Shown here in pieces: positions 21,012-28,581 of a DNA stretch of 28,707 nucleotides (position 1 is its first letter; each line of letters starts with the position of its first letter). The translations under genes and the position numbers were made by a program. This stretch comes from a virus (lineage: Duplodnaviria; Heunggongvirae; Uroviricota; Caudoviricetes): IMG/VR virus record IMGVR_UViG_2778261009_000004; one strand, 5' to 3'. The notes under the pieces were generated by a model. The model ran no database searches and was not told the origin of the DNA. It saw only the letters and a program-made list of their open reading frames with translations.

Positions 21012-22039
<1,028 letters not shown>

Positions 22040-22350
22040 AGATATTTATGATGAGGACGCTCGTGCTTATTGGCAGGATTTTCAATCTTAAAGGAGTACT
22101 GATGCTGCAGATAAGACTCAACTTTTCTGACAATTTTTCTGCTACTTCCAGGAAGACTTGCCGGACGCTCATTCTGGCTGCTGCCTCATAAAACTCCAGC
22201 GTAGCTCCTTCAACACGGTCCATGGCGACATCCAGGCCAAAAATTTCACCGTCAAAGCGTTCTTTGTCCTGTAAGGCTACAGTTACCGTAACTTTATTCT
22301 CAAAATTACGGACTCCTTTCACAACCAGTTCATAGTCTTGAGTCATTGGA

Positions 22351-22566
22351 TTATTCTCCTCTCGCAGCCTTACGCCTGTCTTCTTTAATCTTGAAATAAA
22401 GATTTGTCAGATACGTCAGCAGGCCAAAAACCAGGCTACCCAGCACACCGATTGCAGCCCACTGTGACGGAGTTACTTTATCGAGTAACTGCAATGCCCA
22501 GAAACCAGCATTACCCGCCGATGTGCCATAGGCAACACCTGTTGTTAACTTATCCATTGATTTCAT
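22351..22566 (-). CDS. Class II holin / pinholin (S21-like) with dual-start motif
   Basis: [28 protein letters not shown]...[35 protein letters not shown]: two transmembrane segments, MKSMDK dual start (antiholin/holin), SD GGTGAGGA. The track ORF extends to 22641. Confidence 0.85.
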
Positions 22567-22785
22567 ATCCTCACCCCGATGTACACGGATGGTGCAATAT
22601 GTTTGAAAAGATCGGAGTCTACGGGGTAGTTTTGACAGCACACGTTGTTCTCAACGGCGCTAAAAAAACATACACATTAAAAATGTGGGTAATTATTTTG
22701 AAAGAAAGTCATATATAAAATAATAATACGAGAAATGTTTTCATATTTAGTGTACTGTATACGGCCATTTATACAGGAAAAGCCT

Positions 22786-22956
22786 ATGTCAGAACGTAAA
22801 GACTCAAAATCACGCCGTAATTATCTCGTTAAATGTTCCTGCCCAAACTGCACCCAAGAGTCAGAACACAGTTTTTCAAGAGTACAAAAAGGTGCCCTTT
22901 TGATCTGCCCTCATTGCAACAAAGTATTCCAGACAAATCTTAAAGCTGTAGCCTGA
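22786..22956 (+). CDS. Small zinc-ribbon protein (moron; possibly YdfK/YnaE-like)
   Basis: MSERKDSKSRRNYLVKCSCPNCTQ...ICPHCNKVFQ: CxxC...CxxC. SD AGGAAA 6 nt upstream of ATG 22786. The track ORF starts at 22735. Confidence 0.5.
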   Translation: MSERKDSKSRRNYLVKCSCPNCTQESEHSFSRVQKGALLICPHCNKVFQTNLKAVA

Positions 22957-23019
22957 TTGATTTTATTAGTAACAAGTATTTTTTATATTTTAATAATATA
23001 TTTAAAGCAGATAATAAAA

Positions 23020-23037
23020 AACCCGCCTGAGCGGGTT
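23020..23037. terminator. Intrinsic terminator hairpin (mainly minus-strand orientation)
   Basis: AACCCGC-CTGA-GCGGGTT with an A/T run on the flanks; on the minus strand the hairpin is followed by TTTTTATTAT. Confidence 0.45.
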
Positions 23038-23319
23038 TGAGATTGTGGTGCTTTTTGTGGGAGTCATCCACTTACGCACTTTGTTTTGCGATGCCAGCAG
23101 TTAGCTTCTGCTGTGAAACTATTCATGCAGCAAACCTGCACTTCACCACAATGGTTAGCATACTTTTCCTGATTAAGATTTTGCCAAATATGCTGGCCAT
23201 TGTTTCATGTATTGGACCTCCTTACTTTTTATTAAAGAGATCCAATATTCAATACTCTGTCCGTATCTCTACTCAGGCATCAGCCTTCTTCGTTATCGTA
23301 TACAGACGAGCGATGAATT

Positions 23320-23535
23320 TTAATCAGTAATGATGACATTTGCTGCTGCAGGACCTTTAGCACCACTCTCTATAGAGAAGGTAACCTTTTGACCTTCAAA
23401 TAAGGTTCGATAATTATCATTCTGAATCGCAGAAAAATGCACAAACACATCTTTACTACCATCAACAGGAGAAATAAAGCCGAAACCTTTATCAGCGTTA
23501 AACCATTTTACTAAACCAGTCATTTTATTTGACAT
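23320..23535 (-). CDS. cspB: Cold-shock protein CspB
   Basis: [71 protein letters not shown], matching E. coli CspB as remembered. Confidence 0.9.
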
Positions 23536-23845
23536 TCTACATTCCTTAACTTGAGCCTTTCGGCATAAATGGTTTGCATAACAGAAACGACTTCGTACTT
23601 AATTGGAGAGACTCAAAGAAGGAATAAGTGAATAACACCTGAAATGAGAACTGCTTTAGTAAACTACTTCGTATATCGTCTGTTCTTCAAACCGACGCAG
23701 TCATTAACTCATAGTTGAACATATGAAGCAATGTTTATTTTAGACATCCAGCCACCTTCAACCCTATCAAAAAAGTAGTTTTCTCCAGGAACGTGTGTAT
23801 GGTGCACCAGGTTATCAGTATTAAGGAGTTTTTCTGTCCCCTAAA

Positions 23846-24050
23846 ATGACAGGAATTGTCAAAAACTTTGACTACAAAAGCAGCAAAGGTCTTATATTCC
23901 CATCCGATGGCGTATCGATGCCCAGCTTCACGTTTCAGCTCTCAATCTTCGAGATGCAGAAGAAATTACCACAGGATTACGCGTGGAATTTTGCCGGATA
24001 AATGGTTCGCGTGGACCTTCAACTGCCAATGTTTATCCCGGGATGAGATT
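23846..24050 (+). pseudogene. cspF: cspF/cspH-like cold-shock gene disrupted by a frameshift
   Basis: Frame 1 from ATG 23846 encodes the N-terminal cold-shock-domain motif [22 protein letters not shown] then junk until a stop at 23999. The rest of the domain ([42 protein letters not shown]) lies in another frame from about 23910. The frames switch at GATGGC|GTATCG, about 23909-23912. Confidence 0.55.
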
Positions 24051-24082
24051 CAATATCTCTATTGCCCCATTTAAAGCACAAA

Positions 24083-24102
24083 AACCCGCTTATAAGCGGG
24101 TT
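24083..24102. terminator. Bidirectional intrinsic terminator (candidate tR' for the late operon leader; also 3' of the cspF-like gene)
   Basis: AACCCGC-TTATAA-GCGGGTT followed by TTTTCTACTTTTTT on plus; on minus it is followed by a T-rich run. About 110 nt downstream of the Q stop. Confidence 0.5.
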
Positions 24103-24150
24103 TTCTACTTTTTTCTAAACGTCGGATACACAAAGCCCATCGTTGAGAAA

Positions 24151-24179
24151 ATCTTATCCATGTTTTTTGAAAAATGCAA
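24151..24179 (-). promoter_or_regulatory. Candidate late promoter (PR'-like) immediately downstream of Q
   Basis: Minus strand: -35 TTGCAT (24179..24174), 17-bp spacer, -10 TAAGAT (24156..24151), followed about 50 nt later by the terminator hairpin. Pattern match only. Confidence 0.3.
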
Positions 24180-24210
24180 ACATCATGTCGCCATCTTCAG
24201 CAAAAATCAT

Positions 24211-24963
24211 TTATCTCGTCACCTTCCTCAATTGCGCTTCCGCGTATGCTTCTTCCTGCCAGCACTTTGTTACCAGTTTACCAATGACGTCCGCATACCC
24301 CTTATACCACTGATAATCGGTCAGGTCTGGTACCAGCTTCTGGACATGACGTCGTGCCAGCGTGGTCGGTAAACGACTAAACCGGTTTCCATTACAACGC
24401 CCACAAATCTTATATACCGGTACGCCATGAAACCGGGTTCTTTTTTCATCCAGAACAATCCCTTTACCCTTACACCCTCTGCACGCTGTGCTGACTTCGC
24501 CCTTACCATGGCAATGCTGACATAGTTCCTTTACCCATTCTTCCTTGATTACAGATTCCCCGCGTCTGTAGTGTTTCACCACTTCGCGCAATACATTATA
24601 AAATCCCGTACCTGAACAATGCTCACAGCGAGCCTTACTTGCCGCAGACCTGGAGTAATCAGCAAAGGCAAAATTCACGAGGTAAGGAATAATCTGTAAC
24701 CGGATTTCTTCACTCAATTTGTTCAATGTCGGGTTATCCAGTGCCATCGCGTAATTTAGCAGGCCTTCAATCGCAAACTGAGGGTCCTGAACACCAACTT
24801 TTGCCAGAAATAAGGCCAACCCAAGTGGTGCTTTCGACTGCACCATCCCCTGCGCTGCCATTACATCCGTAATTGTTAAACAACCGGTGCCTGTCGCTGG
24901 AGCGTCATCGCTCAATTTTGGAGATTTTGGGGAGTAATATTTTGGTAAGGCTTCAAGGTTCAT
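24211..24963 (-). CDS. Late-gene antiterminator Q (Qin quuQ-type, four CxxC pairs)
   Basis: 250 aa; CEHCSGTG...CQHCHGKG...CRGCKGKG...CGRCNG zinc-binding motifs; located immediately upstream of the late region. Confidence 0.8.
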
Positions 24964-26772: not shown

Positions 26773-26840
26773 AAGTGCGGGTGCGTTGAGGATGCCTGCC
26801 ACATCAGAGGTGGCGAGGGATTTCTCCCTCGCCGGGTCTC

Positions 26841-26996
26841 TTACTCCTCAGGTTCGTAAGCTGTGAAGACAGCGACCTCCGTCTGGCCGGTTCGGATTCG
26901 TACCTCGCAAAGGTCTTTCCTCGTTACCAGTGCCGTCACTATGACGGTTAAACAGATGACGATCAGGGCGATTAACATCGCCTTTTGCTGCTTCAT
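26841..26996 (-). CDS. hokD: Hok-family membrane toxin HokD (RelF)
   Basis: Own translation: MKQQKAMLIALIVICLTVIVTALVTRKDLCEVRIRTGQTEVAVFTAYEPEE (51 aa). Not in the ORF track because it is under 60 aa. Confidence 0.9.
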   Translation of the reverse strand: MKQQKAMLIALIVICLTVIVTALVTRKDLCEVRIRTGQTEVAVFTAYEPEE

Positions 26997-27066
26997 AGCC
27001 TGCTTCTCTGTCAACGCAAAGCAGAAGTGTCACCTTCGGTGCGAAACAGAGATGTCATGCTTTGGT

Positions 27067-27354
27067 TCAGAGAATGCGTTTGACCGCCTCGCTATATACT
27101 TCCGAGCGTTCTCTTTTCCCAACAGAAATCACGAAAACGACAACTTTCTCGTCTATAACCTGGTATACAAGGCGATAGCCTGAAGACCGGAGCTTAATCT
27201 TGTAACAATCAGGCATACCACGGAGCTTGTTTGCTTCAATCCGGGGTGACTCAAGTACTTCAACCAGCTTCTTTTTCAACTGTTCACGTACCGTCGAGCC
27301 CAGCTTTCGCCATTCCTTTAGTGCCCGCTCGTCAAAATCCAGAAAATACGCCAT
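27067..27354 (-). CDS. relE: mRNA interferase toxin RelE
   Basis: 95 aa, MAYFLDFDERALKEWRKLGSTVREQLKKKLVEVLESPRIEANKLRGMPDCYKIKLRSSGYRLVYQV..., matching E. coli RelE as remembered. Confidence 0.93.
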   Translation of the reverse strand: MAYFLDFDERALKEWRKLGSTVREQLKKKLVEVLESPRIEANKLRGMPDCYKIKLRSSGYRLVYQVIDEKVVVFVISVGKRERSEVYSEAVKRIL

Positions 27355-27593
27355 CAGAGTTCATCCAGCGTCACACGTACTGGCTTAGGATTACGAAGCC
27401 GTTCTTTCACTATCTCCACAAGTTCAGCATCTTCATCACTCAGGAGTGTCTGTTTGAACGGCAAGCGTTCATTGTCAGCGATATACTCGAGCATGAGACG
27501 AAGCGCTTCAGAAGGAGTTACACCCATTTTTTCAAGCGCGGCGTAAGAACGCGCTTTAAGTTCATCGTCAATACGCAGGTTAATGCTACCCAT
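27354..27593 (-). CDS. relB: Antitoxin RelB
   Basis: 79 aa, MGSINLRIDDELKARSYAALEKMGVTPSEALRLMLEYIADNERLPFKQTLL...; stop overlaps the relE start. Confidence 0.93.
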   Translation of the reverse strand: MGSINLRIDDELKARSYAALEKMGVTPSEALRLMLEYIADNERLPFKQTLLSDEDAELVEIVKERLRNPKPVRVTLDEL

Positions 27594-27604
27594 GTCTTAC
27601 ACCT

Positions 27605-27630
27605 CTTGTAATTACAAATGTCATTACAAG
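27605..27630 (-). promoter_or_regulatory. relBE operator (relO-like) overlapping the relB promoter/leader
   Basis: Perfect 12-bp palindrome TTGTAATTACAA (27606-27617) plus a second half-site ATTACAAG (27623-27630), 12-37 nt upstream of the relB ATG (SD AGAGGTG). Confidence 0.6.
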
Positions 27631-27923
27631 TATCGCACTACAACATGCTTAGGGCAAGTCACGAAGGAAGTCAGAAAGTAGTCGTAAGAACGGTGATCAC
27701 TGTCCGCTTTGTGCCAGGAGCAGCCATTGCTAAGTCCATCCTGTATTGTGCAGGTCAGCTCATTTTTAAAGAGTCCGGCCATCATCTTACTGGTACAGAC
27801 ACCATATACTTTGTGACGGTCAGGCTACATATGCACAACTCAACTTATTCATCTATTTTTTGCTTTAGCATGTCAGTGTTGCTTTCTCGTCGGCGGGTGA
27901 GCGGTGACCTGACCTGTCGATAA
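27618..27923 (+). CDS. Hypothetical protein (possibly YdfV-like)
   Basis: 101-aa ORF between relB and flxA; composition not convincingly protein-like. Kept only because Qin carries a gene of about this length here (from memory). Confidence 0.25.
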   Translation: MSLQVSHYNMLRASHEGSQKVVVRTVITVRFVPGAAIAKSILYCAGQLIFKESGHHLTGTDTIYFVTVRLHMHNSTYSSIFCFSMSVLLSRRRVSGDLTCR

Positions 27924-28075
27924 AGGAACGTAGCACGTTTTATGCAACACCCGCATGCGGCAGAAAATTATTGCCGAACGTTTACCCCTGTCAACAAGCT
28001 TTACTTTCTGAGGCGCGCCAGCCCGCTAGGAAAACAATCTGAACATCAAACAATTAATGACACAAGAAATACGAT

Positions 28076-28102
28076 TAAAGATTTTTTTGTGCATGCCGAT
28101 AG
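28076..28102 (+). promoter_or_regulatory. Sigma-28 (FliA) promoter of flxA
   Basis: TAAA (28076-28079), 15-nt spacer, GCCGATAG (28095-28102), against consensus TAAA-N15-GCCGATAA; about 25 nt upstream of the flxA SD AAGGAGA. Confidence 0.65.
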
Positions 28103-28125
28103 TGCTTTTTTAAAAGGAGAAATCT

Positions 28126-28458
28126 ATGTCTGTCACAATTCAGGGAAATACCTCAACCGTTATTTCAAACAACTCCGCCCCGGAAGGAACATCAGAAATA
28201 GCCAAAATCACAAGACAAATTCAGGTGCTGACTGAAAAGCTTGGGAAAATCTCATCGGAAGAGGGGATGACGACACAGCAGAAAAAAGAAATGGCTGCAT
28301 TGGTACAGAAGCAAATTGAAAGCCTCAGGGCTCAACTGGAGCAGTTGTTAAGGCAGCAGGCAGAGAAAAAGAATGAAGACGCGACAGTTCAGCCTGATAA
28401 AAAAGAAGAGAAAAAAGACGATACAAATACCGCTGGCACCATTGATATTTACGTCTAA
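28126..28458 (+). CDS. flxA: FlxA (FliA-regulated protein)
   Basis: 110 aa, MSVTIQGNTSTVISNNSAPEGTSEIAKITRQIQVLTEKLGK..., coiled-coil, Q/K/E-rich, matching E. coli FlxA as remembered. Confidence 0.85.
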   Translation: MSVTIQGNTSTVISNNSAPEGTSEIAKITRQIQVLTEKLGKISSEEGMTTQQKKEMAALVQKQIESLRAQLEQLLRQQAEKKNEDATVQPDKKEEKKDDTNTAGTIDIYV

Positions 28459-28472
28459 GTGACAGCCGTATT

Positions 28473-28495
28473 GTGGCCCTCATCGGGCCACTTTT
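28473..28495 (+). terminator. Intrinsic terminator of flxA
   Basis: GTGGCCC-TCATC-GGGCCAC followed by TTTT, 15 nt after the flxA stop. Confidence 0.55.
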
Positions 28496-28581
28496 CGCCA
28501 TCAGCCTTTTCTTTAAAGACATATTATCTTTGTATCATTTCTGATAGTTAACATTACAAGATATAAGTAATGGACGCACTC

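Follow-up and report, generated by a model that had tools for sequence, protein, structure and literature searches.

Genes and features of the lysis cassette

The stretch of DNA analysed here (28,707 nt, referred to below as the window) carries five lysis genes on the minus strand at 21012–22566, downstream of a Q antiterminator gene (24211-24963). Gene order is that of the Qin prophage of E. coli K-12, with cspB upstream and cspI downstream of the cassette. The following features were assigned; the basis of each is given in brackets.

22351..22566, minus strand: essQ, class II (S21-family) holin gene (PF04971, PHROG holin family, identity to K-12 EssQ)
21957..22346, minus strand: ydfR (DUF1327), frameshifted (PF07041, comparison with K-12 YdfR)
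21506..22039, minus strand: rrrQ, GH24 muramidase of 177 aa (PF00959, identity to K-12 RrrQ)
21012..21509, minus strand: rzpQ, i-spanin (Rz-like) of 165 aa (PF10721, PHROG 312)
21062..21316, minus strand: rzoQ, o-spanin (Rz1-like) lipoprotein of 84 aa (identity to K-12 RzoQ, PHROG 11621)
22564..22601, minus strand: predicted RNA hairpin in the holin leader (folding, -12.2 kcal/mol, 83% of the ensemble)

E. coli K-12 already has annotations for all five genes, namely essQ (b1556), ydfR (b1555), rrrQ (b1554), rzpQ (b1553), and rzoQ (b4689), with the same order and overlaps. Judged by sequence identity and gene order, the cassette is the known Qin-prophage lysis gene set of E. coli (essQ–ydfR–rrrQ–rzpQ/rzoQ). 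The five gene identifications of the initial annotation were all upheld; however, it had not recognised the annotated Qin cassette, and it had placed the complete cassette at 22351-22566, where the holin alone lies.

Of 5,426 complete genomes of E. coli, about 2,080 (~38%) carry the cassette. It is also present in the deposited phage genomes HannyBb, PhiR42_1, Tritos, 2H10, and PhiR63_1 at 94.8-99.7% nucleotide identity, and 91% of it is covered in a sixth, mEp460_ev081. PHROG matches among the cassette proteins were to holin, endolysin, and Rz-like spanin families, and an NCBIfam scan returned nothing beyond a sub-threshold match to a GTA endolysin. The only hits of an Rfam scan of the whole window were two cspA thermoregulators on the flanks of the cassette, and no RNA family was found inside it. 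Sigma-70-like sites were fewer than expected by chance (6 observed, 10.4 expected), and therefore none is put forward as a promoter of the cassette. The literature yielded no experimental work on precisely this gene set.

The holin open reading frame encodes 71 aa from Met1 (an antiholin-like long form) and 68 aa from Met4, which starts at 22557. It matches the Pfam family 'Bacteriophage P21 holin S' (PF04971; E=4.4e-34; 116.7 bits, cut-off 26) over profile positions 1-63 of 64, and is 100% identical to K-12 EssQ and 94% to DLP12 EssD. Family membership and these two identities support the assignment of the protein as a pinholin. The sequence MKSMDK (22549-22566) had been said to hold two in-frame starts three codons apart, and Met1 and Met4 can indeed be read from the 71-aa frame; the longer product would carry an extra basic residue (Met1-Lys2-Ser3-Met4). 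A single GGUGAGGA Shine-Dalgarno sequence (-7.5 kcal/mol) is available for both AUGs. The two pinholin-like transmembrane segments (TMDs) described at the outset are consistent with the PF04971 match and were recovered by hydropathy: TMD1 (residues 8-28) is weakly hydrophobic (mean KD 0.57), SAR-like, and made up to 57% of G/A/S/T, and TMD2 (residues 36-58) is strongly hydrophobic (mean KD 1.5). TMD2 carries G40-x3-S44-x3-G48, which we take to be the GxxxSxxxG face of this helix in the S21 literature. A canonical large-hole holin was ruled out by family, length, and the two-TMD anatomy.

In the holin leader, which is identical to that of K-12, the 3' arm of the predicted hairpin takes in the Met1 AUG together with the Shine-Dalgarno sequence, and the Met4 AUG is predicted to be unpaired. 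Compared with shuffled sequence the fold was not significant (z = -0.2 over 106 nt and -1.4 over 52 nt). It was kept as a feature because it is consistent with a family-wide hairpin sequestering the Shine-Dalgarno sequence: of 16 distinct S21-family start regions, 15 are predicted to form one, with 5' arms that differ, and the sixteenth (L090) gave weak, fragmented pairing only. The hairpin may have a regulatory role.

The endolysin matches the lysozyme family PF00959 (E=1e-23) and aligns with R21 (PDB 3hde; E=2e-16) over residues 9-174, the N-terminal segment included; RrrD and R21 give near-identical alignments to it. Identity is 100% to K-12 RrrQ, 89% to R of phage 933W, 83% to N15 gp54, and 38% to RrrD. 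The catalytic motif E35-X8-D44-X5-T50 is present, and 8 Cys are found in the exported domain. At the N-terminus, K4 and R6 are followed by a weakly hydrophobic stretch of uncharged residues (7-27, nt 21959-22021) with 52-65% G/A/S/T. SAR domains have been described as one to three basic residues followed by a charge-free, weakly hydrophobic TMD of ~20 residues (PMC9239132). The endolysin conforms to this description, at its short and weak end in comparison with RrrD; the summed insertion energy of the hydrophobic stretch (2.7-6.1, vs 0.15-3.8 in RrrD) likewise indicates a shorter and less hydrophobic segment. The N-terminal anatomy and the 89% identity to 933W R, which extends through the N-terminus, support the earlier suggestion of an N-terminal SAR segment and thus of a SAR endolysin of the GH24 muramidase type, to which R21, 933W R, and P1 Lyz belong. 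The 933W protein has been used experimentally as a SAR endolysin by the Young laboratory; on its own it turned a small proportion of the cells into spheres, and a releasin raised that proportion (PMC9239132).

The GTG start of rzpQ overlaps the endolysin stop (GTGA). Its product matches PF10721 (DUF2514; E=3.6e-38, profile 4-160 of 161) and PHROG 312 'Rz-like spanin' (E=4e-58), and is 90% identical to K-12 RzpQ and 59% to N15 gp55. An N-terminal TMD is predicted by hydropathy at residues 4-22 (mean KD 2.34); topology is not confidently predicted, because only three residues, none of them basic, precede it.

The initial annotation was also correct in describing a Pro-rich Rz1 with lipobox LTSC that is contained entirely in Rz, in the +1 frame (21062-21331). 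Translation may start at an ATG at 21316 (MHNRK..., with a better-placed GAGG and annotated as the start in K-12) or at an upstream ATG at 21331; the mature lipoprotein is identical from both. The signal peptide is 22 residues long, the lipobox reads LTS|C with Val at +2, a residue that sorts to the outer membrane, and the mature part (62 aa) has 9 Pro and a CSPTC motif. Rz1 is 96% identical to K-12 RzoQ and matches PHROG 11621 (E=2.6e-8); no Pfam family was matched. It spans 0.39-0.90 of the Rz length, in agreement with the report that ~70% of embedded spanins extend from 0.4-0.5 to 0.9-1.0 (PMC6139136). A scan of IMG/VR with Rz recovered only 99-100% identical copies and was therefore useless for covariation. 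Diverged homologues were obtained by tblastn against phage genomes, and the embedded +1 lipobox frame, including ECSPTCSE, is kept in seven of them, down to 32% Rz identity (among them N15, Fraca, a Klebsiella phage, Skarpretter, Lumpael, and KLER1-1). Automatic annotation missed rzoQ in the RefSeq records examined, and the gene therefore needs to be added by hand.

Mosaic relationships to known phages

The phage 21 cassette was compared via DLP12 essD-rrrD-rzpD-rzoD and PDB 3hde/4zpu. The holin is presumably 83% identical to S21 itself; the comparison rests on EssD, RrrD, and PDB 3hde. The phage 21-type holin, as found in DLP12, is of equal length, belongs to the same Pfam family, and has the same MKSMDK dual start. 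The logic is also shared: a two-TMD holin with a weak TMD1 is combined with a GH24 endolysin possessing a signal-anchor-like segment and E35/D44/T50. Unlike the phage 21-type arrangement, the cassette has an extra gene, ydfR, separating holin from endolysin, and rrrQ lacks a Shine-Dalgarno sequence of its own. The endolysin, with its 8 Cys, is also remote from DLP12 RrrD, as the low identity given above indicates.

The spanins differ as well. DLP12 RzpD and RzoD match PF03245 and PF06085, whereas Rz of the cassette matches PF10721 only, and no similarity of Rz or Rz1 to the lambda/21/DLP12 families was detectable (BLASTP of Rz against RzpD, E=8.5). Membership in the lambda/21 Rz (PF03245) and Rz1 (PF06085) families was rejected on the Pfam and BLASTP results. 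By profile match Rz is of the N15 gp55-type DUF2514 family, and N15 gp55 itself matches PF10721 at 1.3e-55.

In phage 933W (Stx2), R is similar over all 177 aa, and holin S is 80% identical with Met1/Met4. However, 933W R directly follows S with its own Shine-Dalgarno sequence and without ydfR, and an ant gene lies between R and lambda-type Rz/Rz1. Phage N15 resembles the cassette in gp54 and gp55, and its embedded lipoprotein shares the CSPTCSE...LQQKL motifs and the 62-aa mature length. It differs in its holin (gp53, 101 aa, no PF04971 match), in the absence of ydfR, and in gp55, whose N-terminus before the TMD is basic and 16 residues longer than that of Rz. The lambda S/R/Rz/Rz1 genes are alike in their late-operon site downstream of Q and in the dual-start holin principle; in lambda, too, Rz1 lies within Rz in the +1 frame (PMC6139136). 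The lambda spanin families differ from those of the window, and lambda S, with three TMDs, is a holin of the large-hole kind and lambda R a cytoplasmic transglycosylase, both unlike the proteins found here (PMC9636201).

From these comparisons the cassette is a mosaic, with an S21-family holin, an endolysin of 933W/N15 type, and spanins of N15 gp55 type, and with ydfR inserted between holin and endolysin. The term 'phage 21-type' applied in the initial annotation thus fits the holin and the pinholin/SAR logic, but neither the endolysin (38% to RrrD) nor the spanins (DUF2514).

The ydfR frameshift

In K-12 Qin ydfR is intact and encodes 103 aa, whereas the copy in the window is frameshifted after codon 75. 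The cause is a 1-nt deletion in a T5/A5 run after window position 22122 (T4 vs T5 on the plus strand), which bears out the earlier observation that the DUF1327 gene between holin and endolysin is broken. Residues 1-75 are authentic; the out-of-frame tail extends to 21957, which is 83 nt inside the endolysin gene. The match to PF07041 (E=1.8e-41) covers profile positions 1-80 of 93 only, short of the whole domain that an intact open reading frame of ~103 aa would contain. Programmed slippage at this site was rejected, the A4 run being too short.

In the intact allele (103 aa) the ydfR stop overlaps the endolysin start as ATGA. Every one of the 26 IMG/VR loci whose ydfR encodes 103 aa shows this overlap; the gene is also intact in phage HannyBb. 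No Shine-Dalgarno sequence was found for rrrQ (duplex energy +1.1 kcal/mol), compared with -8.5 kcal/mol for 933W R, -8.2 for N15 gp54, and -7.1 for rrrD, each of which lies directly 3' of a holin gene. Some independent initiation at rrrQ could nevertheless be permitted by the A/U-rich sequence that precedes its ATG.

Because rrrQ lacks a Shine-Dalgarno sequence and its start normally lies on the ydfR stop, the frameshift would remove the translational coupling of the two genes and therefore probably lowers endolysin translation. With less endolysin translated, lysis may be delayed or weakened. The initial annotation had judged that the cassette looks functional. This is not established, since uncoupling of rrrQ by the frameshift may reduce endolysin output.

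Proposed route of lysis and alternative explanations

We consider it very probable that the locus is the late lysis cassette of a Qin-type lambdoid prophage of E. coli, most likely operating by the pinholin/SAR-endolysin/two-component-spanin route, with endolysin output probably lowered by the frameshift. The sequence shows the gene identities, their anatomy and families, the frameshift, and the missing Shine-Dalgarno sequence; the membrane behaviour, the timing, the polar effect, and lysis itself we infer as follows. Initiation at Met1 and Met4 would give the 71-aa antiholin-like form and the 68-aa holin, both of which would build up in the inner membrane. TMD1 would then exit the bilayer at a set time, TMD2 would form small pinholes (in this holin class ~2 nm wide and retaining cytoplasmic endolysin), and the membrane would depolarise. 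By then RrrQ would have passed through the Sec pathway and been kept inactive, anchored in the membrane by its weakly hydrophobic N-terminus; upon depolarisation it would be released, refold, and degrade the murein. The i-spanin in the inner membrane and the lipoprotein o-spanin in the outer membrane would then disrupt the outer membrane.

A possible but unlikely alternative is that the cassette is a silent, decaying remnant, in which either the frameshift uncouples the endolysin or Q-dependent late transcription is stopped by the cspF/cspB insertions and terminators. The frameshifted ydfR and the lack of a Shine-Dalgarno sequence before rrrQ would fit such decay, as would a frameshift in the adjoining cspF and terminator-like hairpins between Q and holin (24081-24104 and 23019-23038). 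However, antitermination by Q normally overrides terminators in lambdoid late transcription. Also in favour of decay, K-12 Qin is annotated as cryptic, and deletion of rrrQ or essQ in K-12 left peptidoglycan and vesicle phenotypes unchanged (PMC12287860); ydfR reads are almost absent under standard growth (PMC13232886). The same study of K-12 found rrrQ and essQ transcripts raised 9- to 18-fold under enrofloxacin (PMC12287860). Against decay, the holin and endolysin are preserved at 100% identity to K-12, Rz and Rz1 are intact and full length, and the same cassette occurs in deposited phage genomes. The rest of the prophage, moreover, keeps full-length head, tail, and terminase open reading frames collinear with relatives, whereas K-12 Qin has lost these modules.

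It is doubtful that ydfR is a working accessory of the cassette rather than a passive passenger, and the frameshift a natural attenuated-lysis allele that retains the RNase E-binding part. In that case ydfR would have taken over the holin-proximal ribosome-binding site, so that endolysin synthesis came to depend on ydfR translation through the ATGA overlap. YdfR would bind the catalytic half of RNase E via residues 1-72, which the frameshift allele retains; from this allele the pinholin would be made while endolysin output would be cut.

We regard it as improbable that the frameshift is a homopolymer error of sequencing or assembly and that the cassette is fully intact. One base has been lost from a 5-base homopolymer, and an indel at 22605 relative to the closest genome likewise lies in an A/T run. 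The latter indel is common to K-12, however, and few indels separate the window from a 98-99%-identical relative, which argues against an error-ridden assembly. Exactly the same ydfR allele occurs in 46 of 1,798 matching complete-genome records (~2.5%) from unrelated sources, and NCBI annotates the frameshift (the PGAP label in strain G3/10 is 'frameshifted').

It is very improbable that the endolysin N-terminus is a cleavable Sec signal peptide leaving the enzyme free in the periplasm and controlled otherwise. Such a peptide is possible from the sequence alone, because the hydrophobic stretch ends in AGA-S-A-P: the n-region is MNTKIR, the h-region has 12-16 residues, small residues occupy -3/-1 (AGA|S, ASA|P), and the stretch is shorter and less hydrophobic than the SAR domain of RrrD. 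Yet Pro, which at +1 blocks signal peptidase I, directly follows the best motif (ASA), and is also found there in N15 gp54 and 933W R; an AIA|S motif occurs in RrrD as well, whose alignment matches that of R21, a SAR endolysin of solved structure; the accompanying holin is of the pinholin family; and a constitutively secreted active muramidase would kill the cell before assembly is complete. A precedent exists in T4 RI, whose SAR domain was reclassified as a cleavable signal (PMC8385771), but 933W R, with a near-identical N-terminus, showed SAR behaviour in the Young laboratory assays cited above.

Beyond correct annotation the significance of the cassette is small, and apart from the ydfR frameshift it is otherwise ordinary. 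'Phage 21-type' is best read as a mechanistic class, and an endolysin and spanins of the 933W/N15 lineages behind an S21-family holin illustrate lambdoid mosaicism. The dependence of the endolysin on ydfR translation would offer a simple account of how lysis could be disabled or delayed by a frameshift in a functionally uncharacterised gene.

Organization and origin of the lysis cassette

Five tightly packed ORFs were read on the minus strand of the window at 21012-22566:

ATG at 22566, minus strand: holin, 71 aa, begins MKSMDK
21957-22346, minus strand: DUF1327 ORF (ydfR), 129 aa
21506-22039, minus strand: endolysin, 177 aa
21012-21509, minus strand: Rz, 165 aa, GTG-initiated
21062-21358, minus strand: Rz1, +1 frame inside the Rz ORF, ATGs at 21331 and 21316

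Pfam matches were to PF04971 'Bacteriophage P21 holin S' (holin, E=4.4e-34), DUF1327 (129-aa ORF, E=1.8e-41, profile positions 1-80 of 93 only), Phage_lysozyme (177-aa ORF, E=1e-23), and DUF2514 (165-aa ORF, E=3.6e-38). The corresponding PHROGs labels were holin, unknown, endolysin, and Rz-like spanin; the embedded ORF was also labeled Rz-like spanin (E=2.6e-8). The cassette is real, far beyond chance, and the initial annotation had its anatomy and mechanism class right.

The window represents a lambdoid E. coli prophage of the Qin type. Among 5,426 complete genomes of E. coli, 4,605 match the 1.85-kb cassette (best hits 99.8%), and 2,083 carry it at a coverage of at least 80%. The K-12 record places essQ, ydfR, rrrQ, rzpQ, and rzoQ between cspB and cspI, assigns them to 'cryptic prophage Qin', and shows the order and overlaps seen in the window. 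Identity is 100% to EssQ (holin) and RrrQ (endolysin), 90% to RzpQ (Rz), and 96% to RzoQ (Rz1). In contrast to K-12 Qin, the window copy retains its tail, head, portal, and terminase ORFs at full length, and these are collinear with relatives that are 98-99% identical. The cassette is also present in the deposited phage genomes HannyBb, PhiR42_1, Tritos, 2H10, and PhiR63_1 (94.8-99.7% nucleotide identity), and 91% of it is covered in a sixth, mEp460_ev081. It is thus an already annotated Qin-type module and not new. PGAP naming of the identical holin varies by genome ('EssD' or 'EssQ'), and at four RefSeq E. coli loci (L001, L002, L005, L006) PGAP lists rzpQ and omits the embedded rzoQ, which is annotated in K-12.

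Holin, endolysin, and spanins

The cassette is mosaic in make-up, combining a predicted pinholin of the S21 family with a probable SAR endolysin of the 933W/N15 type, embedded spanins of the N15 type, and ydfR. The designation 'phage 21-type' holds for the holin (PF04971; 94% identical to EssD of DLP12) and the pinholin/SAR logic and fails for the spanins; close relatives of the endolysin are 933W R and N15 gp54.

The holin was expected to be a dual-start pinholin with two transmembrane segments. Met1 and Met4 do lie three codons apart, with Lys2 in the long form only. Hydropathy analysis detected a clearly hydrophobic segment (residues 36-58) and a weakly hydrophobic one (residues 8-28, 57% Gly/Ala/Ser/Thr), matching as TMD2 and TMD1 the S21 layout of a SAR-like TMD1 and a pore-forming TMD2 (PMC7312051, PMC9636201). 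A single Shine-Dalgarno, GGUGAGGA (-7.5 kcal/mol), precedes both starts. In a leader hairpin predicted at 22564-22601, the Shine-Dalgarno and the AUG of Met1 are paired and Met4 stays free; this hairpin was not significant in a shuffling test. Of the 16 distinct S21-family start regions compared, 15 were predicted to form a Shine-Dalgarno-sequestering hairpin, with differing 5' arms, the sixteenth giving weak and fragmented pairing only. The predicted hairpin would fit the dual-start regulation described by Barenboim et al. (1999, as cited in PMC9636201).

The endolysin has a GH24 fold (E35-X8-D44-X5-T50), and its residues 9-174 align with R21 (structure 3hde, E=2e-16). Identity is no more than 38% to DLP12 RrrD, whose alignment is near-identical to that of R21, but reaches 83% to N15 gp54 and 89% to 933W R, which has a near-identical N-terminal segment. 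Its N-terminus carries K4 and R6 followed by 21 uncharged residues, a segment shorter and weaker than that of RrrD and ending AGA-S-A-P, so that the sequence leaves a small probability of a cleavable signal. Pro directly after ASA disfavours cleavage by signal peptidase I, and the conserved Pro argues against cleavage there. The SAR assignment is favoured by the charged residues and uncharged segment, the 3hde alignment, and the identity to 933W R. The eight Cys of the exported domain would suit a periplasmic enzyme. It has been shown that 933W R, used as a SAR endolysin by the Young laboratory, turns a small proportion of cells spherical when expressed alone, a proportion raised by the Mu releasin (PMC9239132). 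A survey of Stx phages assigned their endolysins to the predicted SAR class, paired with pinholins (PMC8136144).

The GTG start of Rz overlaps the endolysin stop (GTGA), with a GGGGA Shine-Dalgarno upstream and a TMD at residues 4-22. No similarity to DLP12 RzpD was detected (E=8.5); RzpD matches PF03245 and RzoD matches PF06085, whereas N15 gp55 belongs to the same DUF2514 family as Rz (59% identical). By sequence, the spanins are not of the phage 21/lambda type. Rz1 has a lipoprotein signal before its Cys, followed by Val at +2; the mature part is 62 aa long and contains 9 Pro and a CSPTC motif. Rz1 spans 0.39 to 0.90 of Rz, which falls in the interval published for some 70% of embedded spanins (PMC6139136). 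The ATG at 21316, with a properly spaced GAGG and used in K-12, is better supported than the start first proposed at 21331; the mature protein is identical either way. The +1 frame encodes a lipobox protein in all seven DUF2514 genes compared (identity down to 32%), with shared LPLPS...Q..P...C.PTC motifs, so the embedded gene is real. In the doubly coding stretch (Rz1 at 21062-21316, within Rz at 21012-21509, minus strand), six Rz residues differ from K-12 over the part encoding mature Rz1, as against one of the 62 mature Rz1 residues; recent substitutions thus fall mostly at Rz1 third-codon positions, which suggests that the Rz1 frame is the more constrained.

Neighborhood of the cassette

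The genes cspB and cspI flank the cassette on the same strand, at the site occupied by stx in Stx phages. Rfam cspA thermoregulator matches (gathering score 78) span their 5' leaders and coding regions:

23304-23696, minus strand: full-length match, 158.8 bits
20390-20806, minus strand: full-length match, 110.1 bits

Cold-stress up-regulation of the ydfR cluster is recorded in expression databases, as cited in PMC13232886, making read-through from cspB into the cassette conceivable. A consensus promoter scan revealed no convincing late promoter. Between the holin and Q, the antiterminator gene at 24211-24963, there are two strong hairpins resembling terminators: one, at 24081-24104, is the perfect palindrome AAAACCCGCTTATAAGCGGGTTTT immediately downstream of Q and cspF, and the other follows cspB (23019-23038). 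cspF (23846-24060, plus strand) appears frameshifted, its C-terminal motif resuming in another frame (ORF 23983-24372); it is likewise annotated as frameshifted in 23CRST009, the closest complete genome. The small zinc-ribbon-like ORF ynfU (CPNC...CPHC; 22786-22956, plus strand) lies upstream of the holin gene and is divergent from it. By collinearity with L005, the right end (26800-28500) carries hokD, relE, relB, ydfV, and flxA; compared with L005, one base is deleted at 27007, immediately downstream of the hokD region:

27067-27354: relB, 95-aa ORF
27618-27923: ydfV
28126-28458: flxA

Among 80 viral contigs (IMG/VR, Rz 99-100% identical), 26 have a ydfR of 103 aa and 34 a DUF1327 variant of 183 aa, and in 20 the ydfR start pattern was not found. 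The holin is identical to that of the window in only six, so the part of the cassette preceding the spanins is highly mosaic.

The ydfR frameshift

The DUF1327 gene is broken, as initially noted: compared with close relatives, the window is one base short in a run of five identical bases that follows 22122. The protein is authentic up to residue 75, beyond which the frame continues 83 nt into rrrQ. There is a small chance of a sequence error in this particular copy; the same allele, however, recurs in 46 of 1,798 matching complete-genome records and is flagged as frameshifted by NCBI (e.g., strain G3/10), so it is a real circulating allele. The product retains residues 1-72, through which YdfR was recently reported to bind the catalytic half of RNase E; co-purification of YdfR with RNA was also reported (PMC13232886).

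The effect on the cassette may not be neutral. rrrQ is without a Shine-Dalgarno (+1.1 kcal/mol, background median -3.1), in contrast to endolysin genes directly following the holin gene (933W R, -8.5; N15 gp54, -8.2; rrrD, -7.1 kcal/mol). Wherever ydfR is 103 aa long in the IMG/VR loci (26 of 26), its stop overlaps the start of rrrQ (ATGA); the frameshift moves the stop 83 nt downstream. From the missing Shine-Dalgarno and the lost overlap we infer that endolysin translation would be reduced. In K-12, essQ and rrrQ transcripts increase under enrofloxacin, and essQ/rrrQ deletion gives no peptidoglycan or vesicle phenotype, unlike deletion of the DLP12 genes (PMC12287860). Only two points are mildly interesting: the translational dependence of the endolysin on ydfR that we infer, and the recurrent frameshift allele.
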